DNA from: Chloroflexi bacterium HGW-Chloroflexi-9
GTDB taxonomy: Bacteria; Chloroflexota; Dehalococcoidia; UBA2979
Length of the DNA stretch: 57,958 nucleotides
Direction of reading: 5' to 3'
Assembly (NCBI GenBank): GCA_002840675.1
Contig: PHBR01000001.1
Location: forward strand, 1-57,958
The position numbers were made by a program, and so were the translations under genes. The notes under the pieces were generated by a model. It did not search any database and had not been told where the DNA came from. It saw only the letters and a program-made list of their open reading frames with translations. Each line of letters opens with the position of its first letter. Within the stretch, counting starts at the first letter, position 1. This document shows positions 26,079-54,077 of the stretch, in pieces.

Positions 26079-26081
26079 CCA

Positions 26082-28127: not shown

Positions 28128-28252
28128 TGCCAGCCTCCCCCAGCGCCGCCCATGCCGGTCGGCCGCTCCGCGGAACGTACCTGTTTCGGCACGGAACGCC
28201 ACACGGGTGGCGGCCAGCGAGCGCCGGATTCGCACTCCGTGTCAGGTGCGGC

Positions 28253-30222: not shown

Positions 30223-30252
30223 GAAGGGGGTGGGCAATTGCCCACCCCCTTC
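30223..30252. terminator. 30-nt perfect palindrome, likely terminator of the surface-protein gene
   Basis: GAAGGGGGTGGGCAATTGCCCACCCCCTTC, located 29 nt downstream of the stop of the minus-strand gene ending at 30281. Confidence 0.6.
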
Positions 30253-30280
30253 GTTCATCGAGAGCCGTGCGCCTCGGTCG

Positions 30281-33034: not shown

Positions 33035-33128
33035 GAGAAAGCCCCTCGCCTTCCCGTGCGGGAGTATAGGCGGCACTGCCGGAGTGCGCTCCGTCGTGAC
33101 GTACCGCCGGCGCGGATGGCTGTCGCCC

Positions 33129-34864: not shown

Positions 34865-34912
34865 CCGGCCTCCGTCCCGCCTGCGCAGTGTCGCGGGCCT
34901 CGCGCGGCGAGT

Positions 34913-35644: not shown

Positions 35645-35702
35645 AAGTCGCGGTCATGGATCGCGCCCGCCCTCATCATGAGGAAGGTAACTGGAGGCAG
35701 CG

Positions 35703-37886
35703 ATGCGCGAACGACCGGACATGCTGGACCAATGGGGCCGATACGCGGTGCGGCGGCGCTGGCCCGTGATCGCGACCTGGGTCGTTATCGCCGCCCTGCT
35801 TGCCGTGACCGCTCGGTCGATCTCGCAGGGGACCGTGAGCAGCCTCACGATCCCGGGTGCCGAGTCGCAGGACGCCGTGGAGGTGCTGCAGCGGTCATTT
35901 CCGCAGCGCGCCGGCGACTACATGGATGTGGTGTTCGCCGCACCTGGTGGAATCGACCAGCCTGACACCCAGGCGCGGATCGACGGACTGATCCAGCGGG
36001 CATCCGAGGTGCCGGGCGTCATCGGGGTGGCCTCGCCGTATGAGCTCGGCGGGATCGTCTCGGCGGACCGGACCGTGGCGATTGCGCGGGTCCTGTTCGC
36101 GCTGCCTGCCGATGATGTACCCGCTGAAACCGCCGAGGCGATCAGCACGCTCGCCGCTTCCGCAAACAGTGCCGCGCTCACGGTGGAACTCGGCGGCCCG
36201 GTGGCGCTGGCCCAGGAGCGCGAAGGGCCGAACGAGTCGACGGTGCTCGGCCTGATCGCCGCCGTCGTCGTGCTGCTGGTGCTGTTCCGCGCCCTGGTGC
36301 CCTCCGTGCTCCCGATCGTGAGTTCGATGGCCGGGCTCGCGACGGGGTTCGCGGTGATCTTTGCGATGACCGCCGTCATCGACCTGAGCAAGTTCGCCCC
36401 GAACATCGCGGCCATGCTCGGGCTCGGCGTCGGGATCGACTACGCCCTGTTCATCGTCGCCCGCTACCGGGAGAACGTCCTCGCGGGGCACACGACCGAG
36501 GAGGCCGTCGGCATCGCCATGGCGACCGCGGGTAAGTCGGTGGCGTTCGCGGGGAGTGTCGTCATCACCTCGCTGCTCGGACTGGGTCTGATGGGCATCC
36601 CCTTCGTCGCCTGGCTCGGCGTGTCGGCCTCCGCGATGGTCGCAGTGACGATGCTCACCGCGCTCACGCTGCTCCCGGCACTCCTGGGCGTCGTGGGGGT
36701 CCGGATCGTGACGAGGCGTCAGCGCCCGACACCGGCCTCCGCGCAGGCGACTCACGTACAGCACGAGACGAGCCTGTGGTTCCACCTGGGCCACGCGATC
36801 ATGCGCCGCCCGTATGTGTTCTTTGTCGTGAGCGCCGTCATTCTGCTGGGGCTCAGCGTGCCAGTGCTCGACATGCGGCTGGGGTCCGCGGACGCGGGCA
36901 ACAACCCGACCTCCACCACCACGAGACGCGCGTACGACCTGGTGGCCGGCGCCTTCGGCCCCGGCATGAACGGCCCGCTCCAGGTGGTGATCGAGGGCGC
37001 CACGCCCGAGGAACTGGAGCAGGCGCGTCTGGCGATGCTCGGTACCGCCGGCGTGCAATCGGTTAGCCAACCCCTCGTGAACCCGGCCGGCACCACGGTC
37101 GTGCTCTCGGTCGTCCCGACCACGTCGCCTCAGGCAGCGGCGACCGCCGACCTGGTGCATGTGATGCGCGACGAGGTGCTCCCGGGCGCACTGGGCGACG
37201 GCGGCGCGACGGCCTACGTCGGTGGGGCGACCGCGCGGGCGATCGACATCGCCGACCGCATCGGAAACCGGCTGCCGCTGTTCTTCAGCCTGGTCATCGG
37301 CATCAGCTTCGTGCTGCTGGTGCTGGTCTTCCGGTCGCTGGCGATCCCGCTGAAGGCAGCGCTGATGAACCTGCTCTCGATCGGCGCTGCCTACGGGGTC
37401 GTCGTCGCGGTCTTCCAGTGGGGCTGGGGCATGGAACTCGTCGGCGTCACGCAGGCGGGCCCGATCGAGTCGTTCCTGCCGATGATGCTCTTCGCCGTGC
37501 TCTTTGGGCTCTCCATGGACTACGAGGTGTTCCTGGTGAGCCGCATCCGCGAGGAGTACCTGGCTTCACATGACAACGCCGCGTCCGTCGCGCGTGGCCT
37601 GGCCGCCACCGCCAGCGTGATCACCGCCGCCGCTGCGATCATGATCGTCGTCTTCCTGAGCTTCGTCCTGAACGACCAGCGCGTGGTGAAGGAGTTCGGT
37701 CTCGGCCTCGCCGTCGCCGTGTTCGTCGACGCGACCATCGTCCGGTTGCTCCTGGTCCCGGCGACGCTGGCGTTGATGGGCGACTGGAACTGGTGGCTGC
37801 CCGCATGGCTCGACCGCCTGCTCCCACGGATTTCCATCGAAGACACCACCCGGCACCCGCTGCCGGCGGCACCATCCGAATCATGA
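35703..37886 (+). CDS. MMPL family (RND superfamily) membrane transporter
   Basis: 727 aa with two blocks of TM helices and MMPL-type motifs (GIDYALFIVARYRE, GLSMDYEVFLVSRIREEY). Confidence 0.9.
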   Translation: MRERPDMLDQWGRYAVRRRWPVIATWVVIAALLAVTARSISQGTVSSLTIPGAESQDAVEVLQRSFPQRAGDYMDVVFAAPGGIDQPDTQARIDGLIQRASEVPGVIGVASPYELGGIVSADRTVAIARVLFALPADDVPAETAEAISTLAASANSAALTVELGGPVALAQEREGPNESTVLGLIAAVVVLLVLFRALVPSVLPIVSSMAGLATGFAVIFAMTAVIDLSKFAPNIAAMLGLGVGIDYALFIVARYRENVLAGHTTEEAVGIAMATAGKSVAFAGSVVITSLLGLGLMGIPFVAWLGVSASAMVAVTMLTALTLLPALLGVVGVRIVTRRQRPTPASAQATHVQHETSLWFHLGHAIMRRPYVFFVVSAVILLGLSVPVLDMRLGSADAGNNPTSTTTRRAYDLVAGAFGPGMNGPLQVVIEGATPEELEQARLAMLGTAGVQSVSQPLVNPAGTTVVLSVVPTTSPQAAATADLVHVMRDEVLPGALGDGGATAYVGGATARAIDIADRIGNRLPLFFSLVIGISFVLLVLVFRSLAIPLKAALMNLLSIGAAYGVVVAVFQWGWGMELVGVTQAGPIESFLPMMLFAVLFGLSMDYEVFLVSRIREEYLASHDNAASVARGLAATASVITAAAAIMIVVFLSFVLNDQRVVKEFGLGLAVAVFVDATIVRLLLVPATLALMGDWNWWLPAWLDRLLPRISIEDTTRHPLPAAPSES

Positions 37887-37941
37887 GCATGGACAGGTAT
37901 TACGACCCTGCGAGGGGCGAATCAGGAATTCGAGGAACAGA

Positions 37942-38310
37942 ATGATCACCACCGCCCTACCTGGCACCAGAGGCGTGCTGCTCCTGGGCTCCGCCATGGC
38001 CGTTGTTGCCGGGCTTGTCTACCTGGCGATCGCGGGCGGCATGGTCGCGGACGACTTCCAGTCGCCACCGCGCCCGCTCATGGCCATCGCCGGGGCGATC
38101 TACCTCGGCGGGGCCGGCGCCATGCACTTCGTGAACCGCCGCTTGCTCCTCGTGGGCGCGGTGCTCAACGGCGTGGTGCTGGTGCTCTTCCTGCTCTCCG
38201 CGGCGCGAGACAACGCGACGGTCGATGCCCTCAGCCTCGCCGGGAAGGCCGCGCAGGTCGCCCTCGGTGTGGCGCTGGTACTGGCGTGGCGCAGGAGCGG
38301 ACCGCGCTGA
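37942..38310 (+). CDS. hypothetical membrane protein
   Basis: Four predicted hydrophobic helices. No recognised domain. Confidence 0.45.
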   Translation: MITTALPGTRGVLLLGSAMAVVAGLVYLAIAGGMVADDFQSPPRPLMAIAGAIYLGGAGAMHFVNRRLLLVGAVLNGVVLVLFLLSAARDNATVDALSLAGKAAQVALGVALVLAWRRSGPR

Positions 38311-38323
38311 CGGCCGGCGTCGG

Positions 38324-39076
38324 CTAGGCGGGCGGTGCGACCGAGAGGCGGCCCTGCACACCGTGCTTCGCGATCAGGCCGGCGACGAAGCCGGAGGCCT
38401 TTGCCTCTTCGACGAATGCGCGGAGGAAGTCCGCACCCGCCACGTTCGCCTTCACGGTGCCGACGGCCTGCTGCACCGCCGCGAACTGGCCATCAAGGAC
38501 GCGCGCACCGGGGAGGTTCTGGACATCCTCGGCCAGGCCGGGGCGCAGGCCGGCGTACGCCTCCAGGCCGTTGGCCGCGAAGTGCTCGAACACGTTCTGG
38601 CCGGCCTCCAGCCGGACGAGCGTGGCGTGCCTGATGTTGCGTTCGAGCCACAGGCCGTAGGCACTGCGCGCCGAGACCGCGATCCGCACCCCGGGCCGGT
38701 CCACCTCCGCGATGGTCGTGATCGAGGATTCCGGCGGCACCAGGTAGGTCGCCTCGATCTCGACGTAGGCGGGGCTGAACTCGATCTGCTCCGCGCGCTG
38801 CGGCTCCGCGCCGATGAGAGCGATGTCCCAGGTGTTGGTGCCGGCGGCATCGGCGACCTCGCCGGGCGACTTGAAGGGGAGCAGTTGCAGCGGCACGCCG
38901 AGGCGGGTGGCGATGGCCCGCGCCATGTCCGGCGAGACCCCATCCGGGTCACCCTCCGCGGTGCGGCCGGTGATGAGGAGGAAGTTGCCCATGTTCACGC
39001 CGGCGCGCAGCACGCCGGTGGGCGCCAGTTCCGCCTTCGCCGCGTCGGAGAGTGGGACGCCCGAGAAGTTGACCAT
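38324..39076 (-). CDS. family 3 solute-binding-protein-like protein (no obvious signal peptide)
   Basis: Pattern GVLRAGVN...GVSPDMARAIATRLGVPLQLLPF...WDIALIG...FSPAYVEIE is typical of SBP_bac_3. Confidence 0.65.
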   Translation of the reverse strand: MVNFSGVPLSDAAKAELAPTGVLRAGVNMGNFLLITGRTAEGDPDGVSPDMARAIATRLGVPLQLLPFKSPGEVADAAGTNTWDIALIGAEPQRAEQIEFSPAYVEIEATYLVPPESSITTIAEVDRPGVRIAVSARSAYGLWLERNIRHATLVRLEAGQNVFEHFAANGLEAYAGLRPGLAEDVQNLPGARVLDGQFAAVQQAVGTVKANVAGADFLRAFVEEAKASGFVAGLIAKHGVQGRLSVAPPA

Positions 39077-39191
39077 GGGCGGGAGTGTAGCGAGGCGTCG
39101 CGGCGGGTGATGCTAGCGTGACGCCGGACGGCGTGTAATGACCTGTCACGACTCAGCGCCCCCACCTTGGGCGCAAGGGCGAAGGAGTGCC

Positions 39192-39569
39192 ATGAACATC
39201 TTCAGGTTGAGCCTCGGGCTACTGGTCGCCACCATCCTCGTGGTCGTCGGTGCTCAGAACACCCAGTCGGTGGCGTTCCACTTCCTGTTCTGGGAGACGC
39301 GTTCAATGCCGGTGGTGCTCGCGCTGGCGCTCGCCGTCTTCCTCGGCGCGCTCCTCGCCTGGATCGTCTCGATCCCCGGGCGCTACCGGGGGATGCGAAG
39401 CCACCGCGACCTGCAGCACCGCGCCGAGCACGCCGAGGAGGCGGAGCGGGCCGGGCACGCCCAGCAGCTTGAGCGTGCGGCGCAGGACGAGCGAACCGCG
39501 AAGGAAGAGCAGGCAGCACAGGCGGAACGCGCTGCCGCTGAGCAGGCAAAGGAGAAGGCGGAGGGCTAG
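39192..39569 (+). CDS. LapA/DUF1049-like small membrane protein with charged tail
   Basis: ATG preceded by GAAGGAG. Two TM helices, then a Glu/Ala/Arg-rich tail. Confidence 0.55.
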   Translation: MNIFRLSLGLLVATILVVVGAQNTQSVAFHFLFWETRSMPVVLALALAVFLGALLAWIVSIPGRYRGMRSHRDLQHRAEHAEEAERAGHAQQLERAAQDERTAKEEQAAQAERAAAEQAKEKAEG

Positions 39570-39653
39570 GGCGCCCTCCCTCCCTGCCCCCCGTGCGGCT
39601 CAGCCTGCGCCCTCCATACACTGGACGCAGCGCCGAGGTGGAGCAGGAGCCCG

Positions 39654-40184
39654 ATGTCCGAAAGCACCCTCTCCCTGATCCTGGCCTCGGGGTCGCTTCT
39701 CGTCCTGTTCACCTCGCTCGTGGCGGTGCTGGGGGTCGGCGCGCCGGGCGCGGTGAGCCTGCGGCGGCTGGTCCTCACCCGGGGGACGTGGCTCTCGTTC
39801 GCCATCGCCGCGATCGCCGTGAGCGGCTCGCTCTACTACTCGGAGGTCGCGCACTTCGTCCCGTGCACGCTCTGCTGGTATCAGCGAATCGCGATGTACC
39901 CGCTCGCTATCGTGCTGCTGGTCGCGGCGGTCACGCGCGACCAGCGCCCCGCGCGATACATCGTGCCCATCGCGGCGGCCGGGCTGCTCGTCTCCCTCTA
40001 CCACTACCAACTGGAGTTGTTCCCGGAGCAGGCGACCATGTGCACCAGTGGCGTGCCGTGCTCCTTCCGCTATGTGGAGGAGTTCGGGTTCATCTCCATC
40101 CCGTTCATGGCGGGTGTCGGGTTCATCTCCATCCTCGCGCTGCAGGCGGCCACCTGGCGCGCTCGCCGCGTCCGCGGCGTCTGA
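39654..40184 (+). CDS. disulfide bond formation protein (DsbB/BdbC family)
   Basis: SLYYSEVAHFVPCTLCWYQRIAMYP (CxxC in the first loop) and a second Cys pair (CTSGVPC). Confidence 0.8.
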   Translation: MSESTLSLILASGSLLVLFTSLVAVLGVGAPGAVSLRRLVLTRGTWLSFAIAAIAVSGSLYYSEVAHFVPCTLCWYQRIAMYPLAIVLLVAAVTRDQRPARYIVPIAAAGLLVSLYHYQLELFPEQATMCTSGVPCSFRYVEEFGFISIPFMAGVGFISILALQAATWRARRVRGV

Positions 40185-40203
40185 CGCGCCACCGACCAAT
40201 CGG

Positions 40204-41304
40204 CTAGCGGATCCCGGAGTCCAGTCGTACCTCAAACCAGGTGCGCTGGTTCGGCGGGACGACGATGGTCTGCGCCGCCATGCTCGGCATGACGGGCGAA
40301 CCGGGCGCGAGGTTCACCTCGTACGTCCCGACCGGCAGGTCGATCGTGAAGCGGCCGCCGATCGTCTGGACCCTCCCCCGCTCGCTGCCACCCTGGCCGA
40401 AGGTGAGCGTCACGTCCGCGAGCCGATCTGGGCAGTTCTGGCCCTCCTGCACGACCGGACAGGCCGGCCCGCTCCACACGACGCCCGCCGCGCCGCTCCC
40501 AGCGGCAGGCGGCGAGGCGGTCGGGATGTCGATCACGATGCGCGCAGGGGCCTGGAGGATGAACATCCGGAACGGCGTCTCCTCGTCCAGCCCGAGCAGC
40601 CAGGTCACATGGCCCTCGAAGCCGCAGATCTCGCGTGCCTCCTTGATCGCCGGCAGCCCCGGCGTCAGGGTGCGCGTGGGGATCGTCATCTCGCCGGCCT
40701 CGTTGTGGATGCGGGCGTTGGTCAGGTGGAGGCGCAGCGTCGCGTTCCCCGCCACCGTGACCGGCGCGCCCTGGCCGCACGTGAACTGTGTGTCGGTCAC
40801 GTACTCGACCGCGTAGGTCGGGATGACGTCCTCTTCGAACTCCACCACGAACCGGTCGTAGCCGGCGTGCGAGGCGGCACGCACGTCGCTCTGCTCGGCG
40901 AAGCCCCCGCTTCCGTCGCCGACCGCATCGAGGAGCACGAAGTCGCCCTCCAGGATGACCTCGCAGCGCACGAGGAAGAGCTGTCCAGCCGGGAGGGTGA
41001 CCGGGAAGCCCGCGTTCACGAAGGCAGGCGCGCCCGCCGTGTACAGCCGCGCGCTGCCGTCTACATAGATGACGAGCGCGCGCACGCCGCATCCCTGGAC
41101 GCGCAGGGCGGCTGCCAGGTCGGCGCTCGATGTCGCCGCAGTCACCGCCAGCAGCGCGACGCCCTCAGCGGGAAGATCGCCGGAGAACGGCGGCACCTGT
41201 GCGCTCGCCGTCTGCTTACCCGGGACGGACCCACTCATCACGCCGATGACGAGGATCGCAGCGAGTGTGAAGGGACGGAGCGCGCGTACAAGCACATGTG
41301 ACAT
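40204..41304 (-). CDS. hypothetical secreted protein
   Basis: Internal ATG gives a signal peptide (FTLAAILVIGVMSGSVPGKQTASAQ). No recognised catalytic motif. Confidence 0.5.
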   Translation of the reverse strand: MSHVLVRALRPFTLAAILVIGVMSGSVPGKQTASAQVPPFSGDLPAEGVALLAVTAATSSADLAAALRVQGCGVRALVIYVDGSARLYTAGAPAFVNAGFPVTLPAGQLFLVRCEVILEGDFVLLDAVGDGSGGFAEQSDVRAASHAGYDRFVVEFEEDVIPTYAVEYVTDTQFTCGQGAPVTVAGNATLRLHLTNARIHNEAGEMTIPTRTLTPGLPAIKEAREICGFEGHVTWLLGLDEETPFRMFILQAPARIVIDIPTASPPAAGSGAAGVVWSGPACPVVQEGQNCPDRLADVTLTFGQGGSERGRVQTIGGRFTIDLPVGTYEVNLAPGSPVMPSMAAQTIVVPPNQRTWFEVRLDSGIR

Positions 41305-41512
41305 GACAGCCCTCGATCGTCTGCAACGACGCCGCGCCAGGCGGGCCGTCACGAACCGGGAATCGCCCTCGGCGAGGAGGTCGTAGCAAAGAGGCTACTC
41401 CGCCACGCCGGAGGCGCGCCGACGGCGCTCGGGGAATCTGCTTGCCGCAACGCGGCGTACAGGTCGTATCCTTCCCGCATCGGCAACGGAGGAACGGAAG
41501 GCGCCAGCCCTC

Positions 41513-42451
41513 GTGAGTGACCTGCGCATCAGCCAGCAGCCCGCGCTCCGCCGTCCCCTGCTCATCGCCGGGTTCGCCGGGTGGAATGACGCCGGTGAGG
41601 CGGCCAGCAGCGCCGTGCGGTTCATCCACCGTCGCTGGCGCTGTGAGGCGATCGCGGAGATCGACCCGGAGAACTTCTACGACTTCACGCAGATGCGGCC
41701 GCAGGTGCGCCTCCGCAACGGCGAGCGCTTCATCGAGTGGCCGCCGAACACCTTCTCCGCGAAGCGCGTGGACCACCTGGAGCGGGACGTGATCCTGTTC
41801 CAGGGCGTGGAGCCGCACCTCGCCTGGAAGACCTACGTCGAGACAATCCTGGAGGTCTGCCGGACGTTCGAGGTCTCGGGCGTCCTGATCCTCGGTGCGC
41901 TGCTGTCGGAGGCGAGCCACGCCCGACCGGTGCGCGTCAGCGGCTCCGCGACCGACCCGGAGCTGGCGAGGATGCTTGGCCTGGACGAGCGCAGCCGCTC
42001 CACCTACCAGGGCCCCACGGGCATCGTCGGGATCCTCTCGCAGGCGGTGAAGGACGCGGGCATCCCCATGGCCTCCATGTGGGCGAACATCCCGTTCTAC
42101 ATCCAGCGCTCTCCGAACCCGAAGGGCTCGCTCGCCCTCCTCGACCGGATCAACTCCGGCCTGGACTTCGGCCTCACGCTCCACGACCTGGAGGTGTTCG
42201 CCGCGCGCTTCGAGGCGCAGGTGGCCGCCGACATCGAGACCAACCCGGAGGTCGCGGAGTACGCGCGCCGGGTCATGGACGACGCCGATGACGAGGACGA
42301 CGAGGAAGAGGGCATCATCGACGACGACCTCCGGGACGAGATCGATGAGGCTGCCGACGCCGGCGCCGAGCTCCCCGATGCCGCCTCGATGGTGGACGAA
42401 CTCGAGCGCTTCCTGCGCGAGCAGCGCGGCGACCGCGGCAGCGACGCCTAG
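41513..42451 (+). CDS. PAC2 (proteasome assembly chaperone 2-like) family protein
   Basis: RRPLLIAGFAGWNDAGEAASSAV N-terminal pattern and an acidic C-terminus. GTG start. Confidence 0.75.
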   Translation: MSDLRISQQPALRRPLLIAGFAGWNDAGEAASSAVRFIHRRWRCEAIAEIDPENFYDFTQMRPQVRLRNGERFIEWPPNTFSAKRVDHLERDVILFQGVEPHLAWKTYVETILEVCRTFEVSGVLILGALLSEASHARPVRVSGSATDPELARMLGLDERSRSTYQGPTGIVGILSQAVKDAGIPMASMWANIPFYIQRSPNPKGSLALLDRINSGLDFGLTLHDLEVFAARFEAQVAADIETNPEVAEYARRVMDDADDEDDEEEGIIDDDLRDEIDEAADAGAELPDAASMVDELERFLREQRGDRGSDA

Positions 42452-42490
42452 AGCCTCGCTTCGTCACCACATCCGGTATCGCTCAGGTAC

Positions 42491-42520
42491 TTGAGCGAAT
42501 CCCGCCCCAGGGCGTATCCT
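42491..42520 (+). promoter_or_regulatory. candidate promoter of the pyr operon
   Basis: TTGAGC (42491-42496), 18-nt spacer, TATCCT (42515-42520). Confidence 0.3.
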
Positions 42521-42544
42521 CAGTGGAACGCCACCCGCGTTGTC

Positions 42545-42668
42545 TTTAACTCGGTCCAGTGAGGCCGGGAAGGAACGCTCCAGATGCTGCACGCGCTCGG
42601 TCGCGCACGCCTCCACACCCCCCACCCTGGCACCGCCGTTGCCTCCCCGTTCCCGGGGAGGTTTTGTT
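42545..42668 (+). promoter_or_regulatory. PyrR-binding leader with terminator/RBS-sequestering hairpin
   Basis: CTTTAACTCGGTCCAGTGAGGCCGGGAAGGAAC resembles the conserved PyrR-binding loop (UCCAGAGAGGC..GAAGG). The hairpin CCTCCCCG-TTCC-CGGGGAGG (42642-42661) plus TTTTGTT ends at the pyrR ATG and contains the SD. Confidence 0.65.
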
Positions 42669-43253
42669 ATGTCCAGCGAGTCGCGCCCGCTTCTCAGGCG
42701 GTGCACTGTGGGTGACGTCGCCCCCATCCTGGACGCCGATGGTGTGCGCCGCGCGCTGCGCCGGCTCGCCCACGAGATCGTGGAGGCGAACCAGGGCACG
42801 CGCGACCTGGTGCTCGTCGGCATCCAGAGCGGCGGCGCCGTGCTGGCGCGCCGGCTGGTCGAGCAGATCGAGGAGTTCGAGGGCACCCGCCCGCCCCTCG
42901 GTGCAATCGACATCACCCTCCACCGCGACGACCTGGCGCAGCGCGGGCTGAACGCCGCGCCTCTGCCCTCCGACCTGCCGGACGTGGACGGGCGCGTGGT
43001 GGTGCTGGTGGACGACGTGCTGATGACCGGGCGCTCCGTCCGCGCCGCGATGGACGCGCTGAACGACTACGGGCGCCCGCGCGCCATCCGCCTGGCCGTC
43101 CTGGTGGACCGCGGGCACCGAGAACTCCCGATCCGCGCCGACATGGTCGGCAAGAACATCCCCACCGCGCGCGTGGACAACGTGCGCGTCCTGCTGGAGG
43201 AGGTGGACGGTCGCGACGCGGTCGTGATCGTCCCGGGAAGGGCTGACGTATGA
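42669..43253 (+). CDS. pyrR: bifunctional pyr operon regulator / uracil phosphoribosyltransferase PyrR
   Basis: [16 protein letters not shown] and PRPP motif [17 protein letters not shown]. Internal ATG preceded by GGGGAGG. Confidence 0.9.
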
Positions 43254-44296
43254 CTGCCCCTGCCGCAAGCACGAGCAACACCCCGCCCGCCGAGGCGACC
43301 CCGAACCGGGGGGCACCGGAGTGGAACCACCACCACGTCCTTGACCTGGACGATTTCTCCGTGCAGGAGATCGAGACCGTCCTGAACCTGGCCGACCGGA
43401 TGCGCGAGGTCCTGGACCGGCGCATCGCGCGCGTCCCGGCACTGCGCGGCTACACCATCGTCAACCTCTTCTACGAGCCCTCCACTCGTACCCGCGCCTC
43501 CTTCGAGCTGGCCGGGAAGGTGCTGGGCGCGGACGTGATCAGCGTCACCGCCAGCACCTCCTCCGTGGTCAAGGGCGAGTCGCTCATCGACACGGTGCGG
43601 ACGCTGCGCGCGATGCGTGTCGACGCGATGGTGATGCGCCACTCGATGGCCGGCACGCCCTATCTGGCGTCGGAGCACACTGACGCCTCGATCATCAACG
43701 CCGGCGACGGGGCGCACGCGCACCCGACGCAGGCACTGCTGGACCTGTACACGATCCGCAGCCACCTGGGCGACCTGCGCGGCAAGCGTGTCGTGATGGT
43801 GGGCGACATCGCCCACTCCCGCGTGGCGCGATCCGACATGTGGGGGCTCACCGCCCTCGGCGCGCAGGTCGTGGTCTGCGGCCCGCCGACACTCCTGCCA
43901 CGCGGCCTGCGTGCCAGCGACCGGCCGGCGCACGCGGAGTCGGCGCTGCCGCCCGTGACCGTGGAGACCGATATCGACCGGGCGATCGAGGGCGCAGACG
44001 TGGTGATGGCGCTGCGCCTCCAGAGCGAACGGCAGCAGGGCGGCCTGCTGCCCTCCCTCCACGAGTACGCGCGCCTGTACCAGGTGACGGCGGAGCGCCT
44101 GGCGCGGGCGAAGCCGAACCACCTGCTGATGCACCCCGGCCCCAAGAACGAGGGCACGGAGATCGCTGCCTCGGTCGCCGCGGGTGGCCACTCGATCATC
44201 GAAGAGCAGGTCACGAACGGCGTCGCCGTGCGGATGGCGCTGCTCTACCTGCTGTCAGGGCGCGAACTGCCATCGGATACCGGAGAGGCGCGCTGA
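43250..44296 (+). CDS. pyrB: aspartate carbamoyltransferase catalytic subunit
   Basis: [21 protein letters not shown] and HPGP motifs. The ATG overlaps the pyrR stop. Confidence 0.92.
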
Positions 44297-45639
44297 TGCC
44301 CACGCTGGCGATTCACAACGGCCGGGTCATCGACCCTGCCCTCGGGCGCGACGGCATCGCCGATGTCGTGATCGTGGACGGGCGGATATCCCGAGTCGGC
44401 CCGAACGAGGGCGACATGGTCGTGGAGGCGGAACGCATCGATGCGACGGGGCTGATCGTCTCGCCCGGCTTCGTCGACCTGCACACGCACCTGCGCGAGC
44501 CCGGCTTCGAATACAAGGAGACCATCGCCACCGGCACGCTGGCGGCGGCGCGTGGCGGCTACACCACCGTCTGCGCCATGCCCAACACCTCGCCCGCCCT
44601 CGACAGCCGCTCGGCCATCGAGTCCGTGCTGCGGGAGGCGGAGTCCACCGGCCGGGTGCGGGTGCTGCCGATCGGCTGCATCACGGTGGGTCGCAAGGGC
44701 CAGGAACTGGCCCCGCAGGGCGAACTGGTGGAGGCGGGCGCGGTCGCGATCTCGGACGACGGCGATGCCGTCGCCGACCCGAGCCTGATGCGCCACGCCC
44801 TCGCCTACTCGACCCGGTTCGGCCTCCCCGTCGCGCAGCACTGCGAGGACCCGAGCCTGGTCCGCGACGGGCAGATGCACGAGGGCTGGGTCGCGACCCG
44901 CCTCGGCCTGCGCGGCCGCCCCGCGAGCGCGGAGGAGACGATGGTGGCGCGTGACATCGCGCTGGCCGAGCTCTCCGGCGCGCACCTGCACATCTGCCAC
45001 ATCTCGACCGCCGGCTCGGTCGCCCTCGTCGCGGCTGCCCGCGCCAGGGGCGCCCGCGTGACGGCGGAGGTCACGCCTCACCACCTGACGCTGACCCACG
45101 AGGAGGTCGCGTTCGCGGAGGACTATCGGAGCATCCGCTACAACACCAGCGCGAAGGTGAACCCCCCGCTCCGCGAGGAGGCCGACCTGGTCGCGCTGGG
45201 CGAGGCGCTCCGCGACGGCATCATCGACGCGATCGCGACCGACCACGCGCCGCACGCCACCAGTGACAAAGAGATCGAGTTCAACCTGGCGTCGCCGGGC
45301 CTCACCATGCTCGAGACCGCATTCGGCCTGAGCATGCGGCTCGTGCACGACGGCGTGCTGACGCTGCCGGTGCTGATCGAGCGCATGACGGCGGGCCCCG
45401 TGCGGGCCTGGCGGCTGGACGAACGCCCGGGTCTCGCCGGCCTCGGGTCGCTGGCCCCCGGTGCGCCGGCGGACGTGGTCATCCTGGACCCGAACGCGGA
45501 GTGGCCCGTGGAGCCGGAGCGGTTCGCCTCCAAGGGGAAGAACACACCCCTCGGCGGGCGGACGCTGCGAGGGCGCGTGCTGGCCACGGTGTACGGCGGC
45601 CAGTTGGTGTACGAGACCGAGCGCGTCGGCGCCTACTAG
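44296..45639 (+). CDS. pyrC: dihydroorotase
   Basis: GFVDLHTHLREPG, DHAPH motifs. The ATG overlaps the pyrB stop (TGATG). Confidence 0.9.
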   Translation: MPTLAIHNGRVIDPALGRDGIADVVIVDGRISRVGPNEGDMVVEAERIDATGLIVSPGFVDLHTHLREPGFEYKETIATGTLAAARGGYTTVCAMPNTSPALDSRSAIESVLREAESTGRVRVLPIGCITVGRKGQELAPQGELVEAGAVAISDDGDAVADPSLMRHALAYSTRFGLPVAQHCEDPSLVRDGQMHEGWVATRLGLRGRPASAEETMVARDIALAELSGAHLHICHISTAGSVALVAAARARGARVTAEVTPHHLTLTHEEVAFAEDYRSIRYNTSAKVNPPLREEADLVALGEALRDGIIDAIATDHAPHATSDKEIEFNLASPGLTMLETAFGLSMRLVHDGVLTLPVLIERMTAGPVRAWRLDERPGLAGLGSLAPGAPADVVILDPNAEWPVEPERFASKGKNTPLGGRTLRGRVLATVYGGQLVYETERVGAY

Positions 45640-45682
45640 CGCTGGCGCTTCCGAGGGAACGAGACGGACTGAAAGGGACCGC

Positions 45683-46837
45683 GTGAGCCTGCTGCACACC
45701 ACCGAGCGACCGCCTGCGCTGCTCGTCCTTGCTGATGGACGGGTGTTTCCGGGCGTGGGCGTGGGCGCCGATGTCCGCACGAACGGCGAGGTGGTCTTCA
45801 CCACCTCCATGACCGGCTACCAGGAGGCCCTCACCGACCCGTCCTTCCGCGGCCAGATCCTCACGATGACGTTCCCCCTGCAGGGGAACTACGGCACGAA
45901 TGCCTCCATGGAGGAGAGCGGCGAGATCCAGGTCCGCGGCTTCGTGGTGCGCGAGATGACCGACCTGCCCTCCCACTGGCATTCCACCGAGACCCTCCAC
46001 GCTTACCTCGCGGCGCGCGGCATCGCCGGCATCGCGGAGGTCGACACGCGCGCCCTCACCCGCCACCTGCGCTCACGCGGCGTGGTGATGGGTACGATCA
46101 CCCAGGACGAGACCGCCGAGGAGGCGCTGGCGAGGCTGCACGCTGCGCCGGACTACGCAACACTGGATTATGTCGCGGAGGTCTCCACGGCCACGGCCTA
46201 TGACTTCACCGACCCCCTGCACGCCCTCGGCCCGCAGCCGGACGGCGGGACGCCGCCCCACGTGGTGGTGCTGGACCTGGGCGTGAAGCGGAACATCATG
46301 CGCATCCTGCGCGCCCGGGGCTGCACCGTGACCGCGGTGCCCCACCTGACGGACGCGGAGACGATCCTCTCGCTGAAGCCGGACGGCGTGCTGCTCTCCC
46401 CCGGCCCCGGCGACCCGATGCTCCTGGACCACGTCACGACCACCGCTCGAGGCCTGATCGGCCGCACGCCCATCCTCGGGATTTGCCTCGGGCACCAGGT
46501 GATCGGACGGGTGCTGGGCGCTGACACGTATAAGTTGAAGTTCGGCCACCGTGGGGCGAACCACCCGGTGCGTGACGAGATCACCGGGAAGGTCTACATC
46601 ACTTCTCAGAACCACGGCTTCGCCGTGGACGGAGATCGGCTGAGCGACGACGCGCGGGTGACCCAGCGCCACCTGAACGACGGCACGGTCGAGGGCCTGG
46701 AGCACCGGAACGAACCGGTCTTCACCATCCAGTACCACTCGGAGGCATCACCCGGACCGAACGACACAGAATTCCTGTTCGACCGGTTCATGACCAGCGT
46801 GCGATCCTTGCGCGAGTCCGCTCGCGGTGGACGCTAG
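45683..46837 (+). CDS. carA: carbamoyl-phosphate synthase small (glutaminase) subunit
   Basis: FTTSMTGYQEALTDPSF and GICLGHQ (catalytic Cys) motifs. GTG start. Confidence 0.92.
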   Translation: MSLLHTTERPPALLVLADGRVFPGVGVGADVRTNGEVVFTTSMTGYQEALTDPSFRGQILTMTFPLQGNYGTNASMEESGEIQVRGFVVREMTDLPSHWHSTETLHAYLAARGIAGIAEVDTRALTRHLRSRGVVMGTITQDETAEEALARLHAAPDYATLDYVAEVSTATAYDFTDPLHALGPQPDGGTPPHVVVLDLGVKRNIMRILRARGCTVTAVPHLTDAETILSLKPDGVLLSPGPGDPMLLDHVTTTARGLIGRTPILGICLGHQVIGRVLGADTYKLKFGHRGANHPVRDEITGKVYITSQNHGFAVDGDRLSDDARVTQRHLNDGTVEGLEHRNEPVFTIQYHSEASPGPNDTEFLFDRFMTSVRSLRESARGGR

Positions 46838-46853
46838 GGAGACGGAGTCAGCC

Positions 46854-47327
46854 ATGCCAGGGATCGTCCGCAAGGCCACCAAGGCCGATGCGCCCCAGAT
46901 CGCGGAGATCATTGCGGAGTTGGTCCGCGAACCTCACCAGGGCGGCTTCCAGCGGGAGTGGACCGTTGCCGAGGTTGAGCAGTGGATGGACCGTCAGGGC
47001 GAAGACGGCGCCTTCTTCGTCGTGGAGGACCGCCACATCCTCGCCTTCGCCACGGTCGACTTCTCGTCCGACGAGCCGGACGCCGCCTCGTTCGGGGCAT
47101 ACGTGCGCGCGCAGAACCGGCGGCAGGGCCACGGTGCGGCGCTGGCCGATGAATGCATGGCGTTCGCCCGGCAGCGCGGCTACAAGCGCATCAAGGGGCG
47201 TCTCCCGGCGAACAACGAGCCGGCGCTCTCCTACCTCTCATCGGTGGGTGCGCTCGTGCCGCTGACCAACCCGGGGTCCAGCTTCGAGTTGCCGATCTAC
47301 CAGGACAGTGAGCGAGGGAACGCCTGA
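46854..47327 (+). CDS. GNAT family N-acetyltransferase
   Basis: 157 aa. AcCoA-binding pattern RRQGHGAALADECMAFARQRG. Confidence 0.7.
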   Translation: MPGIVRKATKADAPQIAEIIAELVREPHQGGFQREWTVAEVEQWMDRQGEDGAFFVVEDRHILAFATVDFSSDEPDAASFGAYVRAQNRRQGHGAALADECMAFARQRGYKRIKGRLPANNEPALSYLSSVGALVPLTNPGSSFELPIYQDSERGNA

Positions 47328-48088
47328 TGCCCACCGTGGACACCACCGCCGTCACCGAGGCCTACCGTGAGCAGCGCGAGCGCGAGTGGAACGCATTCGC
47401 GACCTCCCGTGAGCCGCTGCCGGACTACTGGGCCCGCTGGGACGAGCGCTCCTTCGGTTGGCGTGTGCCGGTCGAGTTCATCCAGCCGGTCGGGCTGGAG
47501 GCGCCGGATGTCCTCGCCAAGCTCGAGCCACTGATGGAGCAGCTCCGCGCGATGCCCGAGGTGGAAGTCGCCCCGATCCCGTGGCTGCACATCTCCTGGG
47601 TGCGCGTCGGCTTCCTGATGTCCACGGACATCATGTGGTCGCAGGTGGAGACGTTCTACGTGAACGCCGCCCCGCGGCTCCGCCGCGTGGAGCCGTTCAC
47701 GCTGAAGCTCGGCGGCATCTCCGTGGTCGATGGCGAACGCATCTACCTCGGCGCGGACGACGGCGGTATCTACCGCGACGCGCGCAAGCACGCCAAGCTG
47801 GGCGTCCCGAAGGTGGGCGAGGTGCTGAAGCACGACCCGCTCATCACGCCGGAGGGCGACCGCTACATGCCGCGCGTGGAGTTCGGCTTCTTCACCGGCC
47901 GCGGCAGCCGCGAGCGCGTGATCGAGGCGCTGGAGCCATACCGCGACCTGGTCGTGGGTGAGATCGCGCTGACGCACCTGAAGATGGCGCGCCTGCCGAT
48001 TCAGCCACACAGCCACTTTGAAGACCTGGACGTCGTCGCGGAGATCCCGATGCTGGGCGCGGCACACCGCGGGGGGTACCACAACTGA
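47327..48088 (+). CDS. hypothetical protein (weak 2H phosphoesterase/LigT-like features)
   Basis: The ATG overlaps the GNAT stop. One H-x-S motif ([10 protein letters not shown]). The expected second His motif appears degenerate (PRVEFGF). Confidence 0.45.
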
Positions 48089-51000
48089 GCACTGACACCG
48101 GCTCCACCGCCGCCGAGTCGGCGGCGGATTCTGCGCGCCCGCCGAAGCCCAAGTCCGTCCTGATCATCGGGAGCGGGCCGATCATCATCGGCCAGGCGGC
48201 GGAGTTCGACTACGCCGGCACGCAGGCCTGTAAGGCGATGCGCGAGGAGGGGATCCGCTCCATCCTCGTGAACTCCAACCCGGCCACGATCATGACGGAT
48301 GAGGAGGTGGCGGACGTCACCTACATCGAGCCGCTGACCGTGGAGGTACTGGAGCGCATCATCGCGCGCGAGCGGCCGGAGGCGCTGCTGCCCACGCTGG
48401 GCGGCCAGACCGGCCTCAACCTCGCCGTCGAACTGCACGAGGCCGGCATCCTGGACAGGTACAACGTCCGCCTGCTCGGCAGCAGCGTGCGCACGATCAA
48501 GCTGGCGGAGGACCGCCAGCTGTTCCGCGACCTGCTCACCGAGATCGGCGAGCCGACCCCCGCCTCCATGATCGTGGAGTCGTGGGAGCAGGCGCAGGCG
48601 GCGCTCGACCTCGTCGGCCTGCCCGCGGTCGTCCGCCCGGCGTACACCCTCGGCGGCACCGGCGGTGGCATCGCCCACAACCTGGAGGAGTACGAGCGCA
48701 TCACGAAGAGCGGTCTGGCCGCCTCGCCCATTAGCCAGGTGCTGGTGGAGCAGTCGTTGCTCGGGTGGAAAGAGCTCGAGTACGAGGTGATGCGGGACGG
48801 TAACGATACCTGCATCACCATCTGCAACATGGAGAACCTGGACCCTATGGGCGTCCACACCGGTGACTCCATCGTCGTCGCCCCGTCGCAGACGCTCTCC
48901 GACCGCGAGTACCACATGCTCCGAAACAGCGCGTTGAAGATCATCCGCGCGCTGGGCATCGAGGGCGGCTGTAACGTGCAGTTCGCGCTCGCCCCGCGGC
49001 CGGACGTGGTCGGCTGGGCCGGCTCGGACGAGGCGGAGTGCCTCCCGTACCACGTGATCGAGGTCAACCCCCGCGTCTCTCGCTCCTCGGCGCTGGCGTC
49101 GAAGGCGACCGGCTACCCGATCGCGCGCGTCGCCGCGAAGATCGCGGTCGGCAAGCGGCTGCACGAGGTGGAGAACGCCGTCACGCGCCGCACGACCGCG
49201 GCCTTCGAGCCCGCCCTGGACTACGTGGTGGTCAAGATCCCGCGCTGGCCGTTCGACAAGTTCGGCACCGGCGACCGCACGCTCGGCACGCAGATGAAGG
49301 CGACCGGCGAGGTGATGGCGATCGACCGCACCTTCGAGGGCGCGCTCCAGAAGGCGATCCGCTCGCTGGAGTTCGGCAATCGCTCGATCCTCTGGGAGAA
49401 GCCCACCTGGACCGGCGACCCGCCGATGGAGGCGACCGACGAGCGCATCTGGGCGGTGCTGTCCTCGATCCGCCGGCGCATCCCCCTCCAGGTTATCTCT
49501 GACCGGTCTGGCATCGACCCGTGGTTCGTGGAGCGGCTGGCGCGCATCGTGGAGATGGAACGCACCCTCCTCTCGGAGGACCTGACGCCCGTCCTCCTGC
49601 GGGAAGCAAAGCGGCTGGGCTTCGCCGACCGGGACATCGCCACCCTCGCCGACCGGTTGCCGGAGCAGGTGCGCGCGCTCCGCGAGGAGTGGGACATCCG
49701 CCCCGTCTACAAGATGGTGGACACCTGCGCCGCCGAGTTCGACGCGGTGACGCCGTACTTCTACTCGACTTACGAGTACGAGAACGAGGCGCCGCCCACC
49801 GCCCGCGAGTCGGTGCTGGTGCTGGGCTCGGGGCCGATCCGCATCGGCCAGGGGATCGAGTTCGACTATTGCTCCGTCCGTGCCGCGCGCGCCCTGCAGG
49901 CCGCAGGCATCGAGGCGATCATGGCGAACTCCAACCCGGAGACCGTCTCCACCGACTTCGACACCTCCGACCGTCTCTACTTCGAGCCGTTGGACGAAGA
50001 GTCGATCCGTGACCTGCTGGAGAACGAGGCCGGCGACTCCGGGGAGGCGCCCCGCACGATCGTCCAGTTCGGTGGCCAGACCGCCATCAACATGGCGAAG
50101 CCGCTGACGAACGCAGCGATGCCGATCGCGGGGTCTTCCGCAGACAGCATCGACATCGCGGAAGACCGGGGGCGCTTCGGCGAGATCCTGGCGGAGCTCG
50201 ACATCCCGCAGCCGCCGGGCGCGGCCGTCACCAACCTGGAGGACGCCCTCAGCACGGCGAATGCGATCGGCTACCCGGTGCTCGTGCGCCCCTCCTACGT
50301 CCTTGGTGGGCGCGCGATGGAGGTGGTGCAGGACGCGAACGAACTCGTGCGCTTCTTCGGCGCCGCGCTCGCGGAGAACACCGGTGCGGTGCTGATCGAC
50401 AAGTACCTCGTCGGCCCCGAGGTCGAGGTGGACGCGATCTGCGACGGCGTCACGGTGCTGATCCCCGGGATCATGGAGCACATTGAGCGGGCCGGGGTGC
50501 ACTCGGGCGACTCGATGGCGGTCTACCCGCCGCAGCACCTCACCGATGAGCAGCGCGACGCGATCGTGGACTACACGACGCGGATGGCGCTCGCTCTCGA
50601 GGTGCGCGGGCTGATGAACGTGCAGTTCGTGATCGCCCCGGCGGCCGACCCGAACGGCCCGGGCGTATTCGTGATCGAGGTCAACCCGCGCTCCTCGCGC
50701 ACCGTCCCGTTCCTCTCGAAGGTGACCGGCGTGCCGATGGTGCAACTGGCTGTGAATATCATGCTGGGCCAGTCGCTCATCGATCAGGGGTACACGAACG
50801 GCCTCTGGCCGGAGCGGGCGCTGGTCGCCGTGAAGGCGCCGGTCTTCTCGATGTCGAAACTGGTGGACGTGGACACGTTCCTGGGGCCGGAGATGAAGTC
50901 GACCGGCGAGGTCATGGGCGTGGACTTCACCTTCGGGCCGGCGGTCCGAAAGGCGCTCATCGCCTCCGGGCTGGACGTCGCCCCCGGCACGCCGTTCCTG

Positions 51001-51396
51001 CTCTCCGTCTCCAACCAGTCGAAGGCGGAGGCGGTCCCGCTGATCCGCATGCTCCACGAGGCGGGATGCCGCCTCTACGCCACGGAGGGCACGGCAGCGC
51101 TGATCCAGGGACTCGGCATCCCCGTGGAGATGGTGACAAAGCGCCTCAACGAGGGGCACCCGAACGTGGTGGACGTGATTCGCGACGGCACGGTGAAGGC
51201 CGTCATCAACACCGTGGAGGGTGGCCGTGCCGCGGCTCAGCGGGACGGGTTCCACATCCGTCGCAGCGCCACGGAGATGCGCATCCCCTGCTTCACCTCG
51301 ATCGATACGGTGCGCGCCGCCATCCAGGCGCTCGCGCACCCCGACTCCTACGAGGTGCGCCCGCTGATCGAGTACCGGGACGGGATCCGCCCGTGA
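48085..51396 (+). CDS. carB: carbamoyl-phosphate synthase large subunit (start codon uncertain, non-canonical)
   Basis: Conserved N-terminus [29 protein letters not shown] begins at 48151, upstream of the first ATG (48238). No ATG, GTG or TTG lies in frame between the stop at 48019-48021 and 48238. CTG at 48085 overlaps the upstream TGA. Confidence 0.85.
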
Positions 51397-52064
51397 GCCC
51401 GGGCGGGCGTCCGATCCGGGCCGCCCTCTTCGACCTCGACGGCACGCTCGTCGACTCGCTCGAGACGATCGCGGACGCGATGTCGCAGGCGCTACGGGTG
51501 CACGGGCACGCGGTGTCGCCCGCCGACATCATCCCGCGTATCGGCCCACCGATGAACGTGATGGCGCAGGAAGTGGCGCGTGTCGGTGAGGCGGAGGCGG
51601 AGGCGATCAACGCCGACTACCTCCGCATCTACCACGACGAGTTCATCCACCTGACCCCGGCGCGCGCCGGCGCTGAGCCGCTGCTCCGGTTCCTGCACGC
51701 GGAGGGCGTCCTGCTGGGCATCGTCACGAACAAAGTGGAGGCGGGCGCGCACCGCATGCTGGAGGTCCAGGGCTGGACGGACCTGTTCGCGTCCGTGGCT
51801 GGCCGGGACACCTCGAAGGCGAAGCCGGACCCGGAGGCAGCGCTGTACGTGTTACGCATCCTGGGCGTCCGCCCGGCCGAGGCGGTGCTGGTGGGCGACA
51901 CGGAGTTCGACGTGCGGTGCGGGAGCGCGGCGGGGCTGGCGATGACCATCGGGATCACCGGTTCGCGCACGGCGCAGGACCTGCGGGCGCGGGGCGCCTC
52001 GCATATCGTGAAGCACCTGGACGAGGTGGCACCGTTGCTGCTGGGAGCGGGGGCGCGCGCGTGA
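51393..52064 (+). CDS. HAD superfamily hydrolase (phosphoglycolate phosphatase-like)
   Basis: Motif [15 protein letters not shown] start overlaps the carB stop (GTGA). Confidence 0.8.
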
Positions 52065-52852
52065 AGTCGTTCGACGCCGAGATCACCGAGAGCGCACGGC
52101 TCTACGGCAACACCCACATCGCCTGGTTCCGGAGCCCGGAGCACTTCCAGTCGGTGACCCCCGGCCAGTTCGTCATGGCCTACGCCGGCGACGGCTGGGG
52201 CGAGACGTGGGACCCGTTGCTGGGCCGCGCCCTCTCCGTCCACCGCGTCCGCACCGGCGCCGATGGCGGCCCCGAGTTCGCGCTCCTCTACGACGTCGTC
52301 GGCCGCGGCACCGAGTGGCTCTCCCGCCGTCACGAGGGCGACCGGGTGCGCCTGGTCGGGCCGTTGGGACGGGGCTTCGAGCCGCGCGAGCGCGTCCAGC
52401 ACATGCTGCTGGTCGGCGGCGGCATCGGCTCAGCGCCGCTGGTGTGGCTCGCGGACACGCTCGTCGCGCAGGGGCGCGAGGTCACGCTGATCCTCGGTGG
52501 GCGCTCCGCCGCGCAGATCTTCCCGCGCGAGTTGCTGCCGCCGGAGGTGGAACTGGTCGTGACCACGGAGGACGGATCGCAGGGCGAGACCGGCCGCGTG
52601 ACGGCCCCCTTCGAGCGGCTGTTGCCCTGGTGCGACCAGGCGTTCACCTGCGGCCCCGACCCGATGTTCGAGGCGCTCTACCGCGTGCTGGCCGGCACCG
52701 GCCTCAACAAGCCCGTCCAGGCGCTCCTGGAGGCGCGCATGGCCTGCGGCCTGGGCATCTGCTACTCCTGCGCCGTCTTCCCTCGTAAGGGCGGCACGCG
52801 CCTCGTGTGCCACGACGGCCCGATGTTCGACCTGCGCGAACTCTACGGATGA
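52061..52852 (+). CDS. pyrK: dihydroorotate dehydrogenase electron-transfer subunit
   Basis: FAD/NAD-binding LLVGGGIGSAPL and C-terminal 2Fe-2S cysteines (CGLGICYSCAV...LVC). GTG start overlaps the HAD stop (GTGA). Confidence 0.85.
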   Translation: MKSFDAEITESARLYGNTHIAWFRSPEHFQSVTPGQFVMAYAGDGWGETWDPLLGRALSVHRVRTGADGGPEFALLYDVVGRGTEWLSRRHEGDRVRLVGPLGRGFEPRERVQHMLLVGGGIGSAPLVWLADTLVAQGREVTLILGGRSAAQIFPRELLPPEVELVVTTEDGSQGETGRVTAPFERLLPWCDQAFTCGPDPMFEALYRVLAGTGLNKPVQALLEARMACGLGICYSCAVFPRKGGTRLVCHDGPMFDLRELYG

Positions 52853-52862
52853 GGCCCTCTCG

Positions 52863-53090
52863 ATGAGGCTCGGCCGCCATCACGTCATCATCCTGGCCGG
52901 GATCGCGCTCGGGCTAGCAGTCGGGCTGTTCGTCTTCGACACCGAGCCGCCCGTCCTCGGATGGCTGTTCGGTCTCGGGATGGGGTTGTCTGGTGGCGCG
53001 TTCATCGCCGCGGTCACCTCGGGCGAGGCGATCGCGGGTGGCGGTGAACGCGGTCCTGTTCGCCTCCGGCGTCCACGAGGTGGCGGCTGA
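52863..53090 (+). CDS. possible small membrane protein
   Basis: Two hydrophobic segments. The C-terminal part overlaps the enolase-like fragment in another frame, so the end is doubtful. Confidence 0.25.
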   Translation: MRLGRHHVIILAGIALGLAVGLFVFDTEPPVLGWLFGLGMGLSGGAFIAAVTSGEAIAGGGERGPVRLRRPRGGG

Positions 53091-53142
53091 GGCCGCGCGG
53101 GCGATCGAAGCGGGCTTCCGGACGGTGAAGCTCAAGGTCGGG
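53035..53142 (+). pseudogene. orphan fragment of an enolase-superfamily (MR/MLE, OSBS-like) gene
   Basis: VAVNAVLFASGVHEVAAEAARAIEAGFRTVKLKVG matches the conserved block ending in the KxK motif. The N-terminal capping domain and the remaining barrel are missing. Confidence 0.45.
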
Positions 53143-54077
53143 GCGACGACGCCGTCGGAGACGTCTCCGCTATCGATTCGCCCGGCCAGCCAGGCTTCGA
53201 CGGCGGCCGGCTCGGCGTCGGAAAACTCGGCCAGGACGTACCACGGCGACGCTTCGCACGGCCGCGTTGTATCGGGAATGTGCTTGAGGACCAGCCCGAG
53301 CGCCGTTTCCGAAACCAGCTCGAAGGCCGTCAGTTGCGCGTCAAAATCGGTTTTTGCCGAATTCAGCAGGTCGACCGCAGCAGCCGGCGAAACGACGTTC
53401 AGCCAGCAGGTAAGCAGCCTTTTGGGCAGCGGAAAAAGCTTGAGCACGGCGCCAGTGATGATGCCCAGCGTGCCTTCGGCGCCGATAAATAGCTGTTTGA
53501 GATCGTAGCCGGTGTTGTCCTTGCGCAGACCGCGCAGGCCGTTCCAGATGTCGCCGTTAGGCAGGACCACCTCAAGGCCGAGCGTCAGTTCGCGGGTGTT
53601 GCCATAACGCAGAACCTGGACCCCCCCCGCATTGGTCGACAGGTTGCCACCGATCTGGCACGTCCCTTCCGACGCCAGGGCCAGCGGAAAGAGCCGGTCG
53701 GCGGCGCGCGCAGCCTCCTGGACAGCGGCCAGCGTACAGCCGGCCTCGACTGAAATCGTGCTGTTTTCCCGGTCGACCGTAAGAATGCGATTGAGACGGC
53801 TCAAACTGACGACCACCGCGCCGCCTGAGTCGTCCGGCGTTGCCGCGCCGCACAGGCTGGTGTTGCCGCCCTGCGGGACGATGGCCACACCGGCTTCGGC
53901 ACAGGCTTTGACGACCGCCGCCACCTCGGTGCTATTGCCGGGACGAACGACGCATTGCGCGGCGCCGCGATAACGGCCGCGCCAGTCGGTGACGAAGGGC
54001 GCCATGTCGGCCGGCTCGGTCAGCACCTGGGCCGGTCCGACCAGCGCAACGAGGCGAGCGATCAGGGAATCAGGCAT
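53142..54077 (-). pseudogene. FAD-linked oxidase (GlcD/D-2-hydroxyacid dehydrogenase-like), 3'-truncated at the breakpoint
   Basis: MPDSLIARLVALVG...VVRPGNSTEVAAVVKAC...IVPQGGNTSLCGAATP is an FAD-binding PCMH domain. Homology stops at ...DVSDGVVA (about 312 of an expected ~470 aa). Confidence 0.75.

Follow-up and report, generated by a model that had tools for sequence, protein, structure and literature searches.

The window, a 57,958-nt stretch of DNA covering positions 1 to 57,958 of contig PHBR01000001.1 (forward strand) in the Chloroflexi bacterium HGW-Chloroflexi-9 assembly GCA_002840675.1, contains an abrupt breakpoint that is real in the sequence, yet almost certainly an assembly artefact. 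From comparisons with other assemblies, we consider it very likely that the window is not one contiguous piece of a genome but a metagenomic chimera (contig or scaffold), built in silico from three sources. It contains two joints about 90 nt apart, one at 53047|53048 between segments that we call A and B, and the other at 53140|53141 between segments B and C. Segment A (1-53047) would then come, with high probability, from a high-GC Chloroflexota (Dehalococcoidia-like) genome, and segment C (53141-57958) in all likelihood comes from a low-coverage minor strain of HGW-Betaproteobacteria-6. Segment B (53048-53140) would be a roughly read-length menC-like scrap, derived either from a rare high-GC organism or from an unassembled piece of A's genome. 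The truncated genes that abut at the joint appear to be a by-product of the join, and the ORFs that fuse them do not appear to be real genes. The original prediction, made from this sequence alone, had proposed a possible chimeric assembly of two unrelated contexts as well as a second rearrangement near 53035. Both ideas are supported by our analysis: the two flanks were found separately in independent assemblies, with C's native sequence crossing the joint, and the enolase-like piece between them is a separate third fragment, whose homology starts at 53028 and which departs from the left-flank sequence at 53048.

Segment C, which lies on the minus strand and reaches the window end, is identified as betaproteobacterial (Azonexaceae, Dechloromonas-like) by its identity to reference contigs. 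In BLASTN comparisons it is 99.8% identical to ten of these (L001-L006 and L091-L094), and the 4,673 nt from 53286 to 57958 are 100% identical to three of them (L001, L002 and L004). Since the match includes HGW-Betaproteobacteria-6 contigs at 99.8%, the betaproteobacterial look that had been noted for the right side is borne out. The genes of this segment, all on the minus strand, are a truncated FAD-linked oxidase (GlcD / D-2-hydroxyacid dehydrogenase-like; 53141..54077, assigned by Pfam and homologue alignment), a patatin (54085-54951), rimO (54958-56289) and an HD-GYP protein (56347-57741, taken as the longest ORF; its start is uncertain, and other assemblies give 444-457 aa); a tRNA scan placed a tRNA-Val(TAC) on the plus strand at 57859-57934. 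The rimO and patatin proteins recur residue for residue in GCA_002842145.1 (PHCF01000001.1), in GCA_017973855.1, in JGI Ga0246100/98/92 and in ENA ERZ27239241/43/44/45.

Nine other loci, from several samples or assemblies, extend as far as the joint (NCBI GCA_002842145.1 and GCA_017973855.1; JGI Ga0246100/98/92; ENA ERZ27239243/44/45), and all nine tell the same story: the rimO-patatin-FAD oxidase block contains an intact oxidase of 463 aa, beyond which come HisKA/HATPase, Hsp33, ArsC, ferric reductase, Tex and FliW. A more distant relative keeps this gene order past the oxidase as well. At the joint itself, the native sequence reads ...GGTTTCCGACT|GGGCGACG... and the window ...CTCAAGGTCG|GGGCGACG..., with unrelated sequences to the left of 53141.

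The best named match of the oxidase is PKO41750.1 from 'Betaproteobacteria bacterium HGW-Betaproteobacteria-6', at 99% identity, and the other listed homologues are 81-92% identical, the named ones belonging to Dechloromonas, Azonexus, Ferribacterium and Rhodocyclales. Among the best 120 homologues, lengths are mostly 461-476 aa, with a few of 327-444 aa. The window's copy starts at 54077, 8 nt after patatin, and retains a complete FAD_binding_4 domain, while its FAD-oxidase_C match covers only profile positions 9-79 of 248; it therefore does not have the two complete domains and the length of about 460-470 aa of an FAD-linked oxidase. Only 312 of the 463 codons are kept: the alignment to the native protein stops at ...DVSDGVVA|QSETQAKKLW, which means that 151 codons are gone. 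The original prediction had this minus-strand oxidase losing homology after ...DVSDGVVA, and nucleotide identity to the native gene does indeed stop at 53141. From there the reading frame runs on through B and A as nonsense, to a stop at 52914. As far as their sequences go, neither this oxidase copy nor B is a functional gene of its family.

All differences between C and its references fall into one small patch of 8 SNPs within 69 nt (53217..53285), at a distance of 76-145 nt from the B/C joint. As a result, three residues of the oxidase are altered (E>K, M>T, P>A), in a region where the protein is variable. The other allele is present in 9 of 9 compared loci and the window's variants are unique to the window; a 46-mer carrying them had no match in JGI contigs, and P0122, the second member of the oxidase's 90% cluster, has the common allele rather than the window's. 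At 5 of the 8 positions, the window base is the allele of a 92% relative (P0002/L096), so the SNPs look like real minor-strain alleles and not like sequencing errors. The patch thus points to a minor strain variant, i.e., an assembly-graph bubble beside the joint. A and C also occur together in one sample, ERZ27239241, where A is on a 41.8-kb contig and C's organism on a contig of 1,476 nt, the shortness of which points to low coverage of C in that sample. Assembly graphs fragment under such conditions of low coverage combined with strain variation.

Donor and recipient sharing one habitat would also suit a genuine junction, in which illegitimate recombination mediated by microhomology would very recently have brought betaproteobacterial DNA, together with a menC scrap, into a groundwater Chloroflexota, prior to any amelioration. 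However, with C perfectly identical to its donor over 4,673 nt, the transfer would have to be extremely recent, and the window stops 4.8 kb past the joint and is never back in Chloroflexi DNA. Taken with the points given below, these observations make a genuine junction the least probable of the readings that we considered, with only a very slight chance of being correct.

On the other side, the corroborated part of segment A (25703..53047, plus strand) was defined by its identity and colinearity with contigs from other assemblies, which were located with carB, pyrK and an MMPL protein. It is colinear with, and 99.995-100% identical to, the 41.8-kb ENA contig ERZ27239241 k141_78523 (L007, L097), and it likewise matches Logan SRR3546454 contigs (L009, L098), although the ENA and Logan contigs may share one read set and would then not be fully independent. 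The window to the left of 25703 bears the same tetranucleotide signature, with correlations of at least 0.945 across 1-53 kb. The product of the ORF at 11938-13119, queried in order to trace where the independent contig of A ends on its distal side, was not on record in an exact-product look-up.

The genes nearest the joint in segment A are, on the plus strand, carB (48238-51396), HAD (51393-52064) and pyrK (52061-52852), with a small Gly-rich membrane ORF downstream of pyrK, from 52863 onward. Against GTDB species representatives, carB has its best matches, at 63-70% identity, in MAGs of Dehalococcoidia/Chloroflexota, in keeping with the Chloroflexi-like character that had been ascribed to the left side; by carB, there is no close relative among these representatives. 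A carB match at 69% lies on a 4.1-kb contig with a coverage of 0.29 (L010; JAIVWR010000132.1) that was binned as 'Acidobacteriota', and another (L015) reaches 70%. All other close carB matches being from Dehalococcoidia, the 'Acidobacteriota' label may reflect misbinning within that MAG. Relatives show the carB-pyrK pair only on these two short contigs, each of which ends right after pyrK.

The window first differs from the native A contigs at 53048, where it reads ...GGTGA|ACGCGGTCC... and both of the others read ...GGTGA|CGCAGGCGGGGG and then end. The ERZ27239241 (MEGAHIT) and Logan contigs of A thus end at the identical base, 12 nt beyond the A/B divergence, which makes A a dead end in the other assemblies. 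Short-read assembly seems to break down just 3′ of the small Gly-rich ORF, whether through a loss of coverage, a G-run or a repeat. We observed that the ends of the native contigs (L007, L008 and L009) lie on a G-rich tail, ...GACGCAGGCGGGGG, with the G-run GGCGGGGG. Both flanks of the window therefore continue differently in independent assemblies, C at nine loci and A in two contigs, in the latter case with a continuation of 12 nt only. The departure of the other A assemblies from the window at 53048 also speaks against a genuine transfer.

Segment B (53048..53140, plus strand) is a 93-nt orphan fragment of the enolase superfamily (menC / o-succinylbenzoate-synthase-like), recognized by its homology to one gene. 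Frame 2 of the plus strand reads ...RSRVAVNAVLFASGVHEVAAEAARAIEAGFRTVKLKVG, ending at 53142, and B proper encodes ...AVLFASGVHEVAAEAARAIEAGFRTVKLKVG, lacking both the 5′ and the 3′ parts of the gene. The match to the MR_MLE_C profile is sub-threshold (E 0.019, profile positions 1-24 of 219), and when the 35-aa peptide was run through HMMER against 1.84 billion representatives, it gave one match, P0121 (79% over 33 aa, E 3e-6). At the nucleotide level, 53028-53138 aligns to the P0121 gene at 86.5% identity, including an exact run of 25 nt at 53028-53052. This gene (L090; ENA ERZ25039554 contig_62008) has Chorismate_bind, ECH_1 and AMP-binding_C genes as neighbors, and since it sits in a menaquinone (men) cluster, we regard it as menC-like. 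Taken together, the weak profile match, the one protein homologue and the nucleotide alignment agree with the original description of a plus-strand enolase-superfamily block ending in ...GFRTVKLKVG at 53142, and the abrupt start of the homology at 53028 agrees with its being devoid of its own 5′ part. Like MenC, a member of the MR/MLE superfamily, the encoded stretch ends in a KxK motif (TVKLKVG); unlike MenC, it is a fragment of about 31-37 codons that has neither a capping domain nor a barrel with metal ligands, and it does not combine the capping domain, TIM barrel, KxK motif and metal-binding residues of the enolase superfamily. Past 53140, frame 2 reads 'GATTPSE...', which could still be menC-like.

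The P0121 gene call is itself damaged (5001-5810 of its contig): after ...TVKLKV it continues into an Arg-rich, out-of-frame-looking tail. The men genes that adjoin it are short fragments, and the contig has a long-read-style name, which suggests frameshift errors in the ERZ25039554 assembly as the reason for the damaged call.

As for the source of B, BLASTN comparisons gave no match for it in the reference contigs of either A or C, its peptide has no match in a word-indexed set of 5.8 billion proteins, and neither JGI metagenome contigs nor GTDB genome contigs contain an exact copy of a 60-mer taken from it. Because its gene was never called in any assembly, B probably stems from a rare community member with very few reads. 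An alternative is that only the B/C joint is false and that A-B is native, with B being a 5′-truncated menC pseudogene that follows the small ORF, and the 12 end bases of the other contigs being low-quality read ends. The GC3 of B is about 0.93 (a hand count over 29 codons), similar to that of A, and the G-run GGCGGGGG in which the other contigs finish is a possible sequencing artefact. However, the menC homology opens abruptly inside A's small ORF, at 53028, with no menC sequence upstream of it, two assemblies agree on the 12 alternative bases (CGCAGGCGGGGG), and none of the proteins called from assemblies of this community matches the B peptide. We therefore consider a native A-B junction quite improbable, and prefer to treat B as a third, separate source.

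A and B share a stretch of 20 nt, GCGATCGCGGGTGGCGGTGA (53028..53047), that is found both in the native A contigs (L007 and L009) and in the menC-like homologue, and that occurs once in the window. It qualifies as an overlap at the A/B joint because menC-type homology runs from 53028 and native-A identity runs up to 53047; its membership in B's gene being judged from the sole known homologue, it would be the short overlap that joins A and B. By our own estimate, two high-GC genomes of a few Mb, with a per-base match probability of about 0.29, should have hundreds of 20-mers in common by chance, so an overlap of this size is unremarkable. As microhomology, it would be compatible with illegitimate recombination in a genuine transfer, but that reading would also need three sources to converge within 93 nt.

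Composition sets the two flanks apart in the same way as their relatives do. GC drops from about 0.70 left of the joint to 0.636 right of it, and GC3 from 0.92-0.95 (carB, HAD and pyrK) to 0.78-0.83 (oxidase, patatin, rimO and HD-GYP), as the original prediction had it. In tetranucleotide usage, 53143-57958 has a correlation of 0.858 with the left part, whereas every 4.8-kb window within the left part reaches at least 0.945. The best matches of carB, on the left, are to Dehalococcoidia/Chloroflexota, and those of the oxidase, on the right, to Betaproteobacteria. Thus the relatives of carB versus those of the FAD oxidase, GC3 and tetranucleotides all assign the flanks to different organisms.

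A block of foreign composition and taxonomy adjoining native DNA is also what a genomic island or a recent horizontal transfer would look like, and we therefore searched the joint for the hallmarks of such elements. The Pfam domains of all ORFs within about 4 kb of it include no IS, integrase or transposase domain; there is no tRNA within 4.7 kb, the nearest being the tRNA-Val at 57859; Rfam scans gave no match at the joint; repeats there are at chance level only; and no promoter or terminator patterns rise above chance. This agrees with the earlier statement that no IS, repeat or tRNA lies at the joint, and the window accordingly has none of the features by which a genomic island or integrative element is recognized (an integrase or transposase, a tRNA or attachment site, flanking direct repeats). 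Unlike the genes at the edges of an island, those at the joint are truncated rather than complete; C is perfectly identical to a co-occurring donor, there is no return to host DNA, and the junction is in no other assembly. A genomic island or IS-mediated rearrangement was rejected on the grounds that no supporting element is present at the joint. For a genuine transfer by illegitimate recombination, the truncated genes at each joint and the lack of any integrase, IS, tRNA or repeats are likewise unfavorable.

The joints give rise to three fusion ORFs: one on the minus strand (52914-54224) and one on the plus strand (52993-53508) that span the joints, and another on the plus strand (52863-53090) that spans A/B. 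Exact-product look-ups of two of the fusion products (387 aa and 75 aa) found neither on record. The junction is thus not reproduced in other data, as gauged by these fusion ORFs and by the 60-mer from B in JGI metagenome contigs and GTDB genomes. A junction carried by a living organism is hard to reconcile with the absence of the B 60-mer and both fusion ORFs from the collections searched.

How might the three pieces have been joined? The tip of A at 53047 would be a dead end where coverage or sequence quality failed, and the loose end of C near 53141 would be the end of a minor-strain path, with its strain bubble and fragmented coverage. The assembler, a scaffolder or a gap-filler may then have linked both loose ends through B via short shared k-mers. 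The bridge would be of sub-read length, with menC-like homology over about 110 nt if the overlap with A is counted, and the B/C joint presumably holds a similar short overlap, predicted to start at GGGCGACGACGCC.... The 'HGW' prefix denotes genomes from Horonobe groundwater (Hernsdorf et al., 2017; PMC5520028), which were assembled with IDBA-UD at mink 40, followed by scaffolding and curation (PMC5520028). We considered a 'k=20 IDBA-UD join' and rejected it as unproven, the HGW study having used mink 40. Given that setting, we do not take a plain graph join over a 20-mer as the established mechanism, and scaffolding or gap-filling may be responsible.

The chimera could instead have been made in vitro, as a library-preparation hybrid that arose by ligation or by PCR/MDA template switching at short homologies and that was then faithfully assembled. 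The 20-nt stretch shared by A and B would suit polymerase template switching, and the unique part of B is shorter than a read; however, two switches among three templates would be required within about 110 nt of one molecule, the hybrid molecule would have to outcompete the true continuations in the graph, and the dead end of A and the strain bubble of C are more simply explained by a graph or scaffolding error. We thus give an in vitro origin little credence, and the junction is an artefact under that reading as well.

Inter-genome misassembly (inter-species translocation) is reportedly the class of error that metaMIC, DeepMAsED and GUNC target. The window resembles such cases in that it has flanks from different phyla, an abrupt change in both composition and codon bias, and genes cut at the breakpoint; in addition, other assemblies show a different continuation or a dead end, an overlap is short, and one of the partners is of low coverage and strain-variable. 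It differs from the usual case in that the join is indirect, through a 93-nt fragment of a third gene with two breakpoints about 90 nt apart. The joint, we conclude, is almost certainly an ordinary inter-genome misassembly, the bridging fragment being its only peculiarity.

The significance of this finding is a matter of data hygiene, not of biology. In a Chloroflexota bin, this contig would cause 4.8 kb of betaproteobacterial rimO, patatin, HD-GYP, tRNA-Val and truncated oxidase to be misattributed to that lineage, three nonsense fusion ORFs would enter protein databases, and the joint could pass for an inter-phylum gene transfer. In practice, we recommend cutting the contig at 53047 and 53141, dropping B and C from the bin, and discarding the fusion ORFs. 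The window also provides a worked example of a two-step chimera that can be detected without reads by comparing independent assemblies.

Several further observations concern features away from the joint. On the C side, the original prediction had paired the tRNA-Val with a TATAAT promoter: the TATAAT hexamer is present at 57844-57849, 9 nt upstream of the tRNA-Val(TAC), but a sigma-70 consensus scan gave no acceptable -35/-10 pair there, and hence no full promoter. The window ends 24 nt after this tRNA, and the other contigs carry on.

On the A side, the pyr operon occupies about 42670-52852 (4432-14615 of L007) and reads pyrR-pyrB-pyrC-carA-GNAT-unknown 253-aa ORF-carB-HAD-pyrK, with the small Gly-rich membrane ORF next. 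It is interleaved with non-pyr genes (the GNAT acetyltransferase, the 253-aa ORF and the HAD phosphatase), and its stops and starts overlap or nearly abut. The prediction that the operon had been cut short after pyrK is not secure, for the native contigs also show pyrK followed by the same small ORF. Farther to the left, a minus-strand ORF (30281-33157) contains, at 30778-31475, three tandem copies of a 231-nt (77-codon) unit that are 92% identical and free of indels; the protein of about 917 aa that carries them has no Pfam match. The independent ENA contig carries this array too, so it was not created by faulty assembly.
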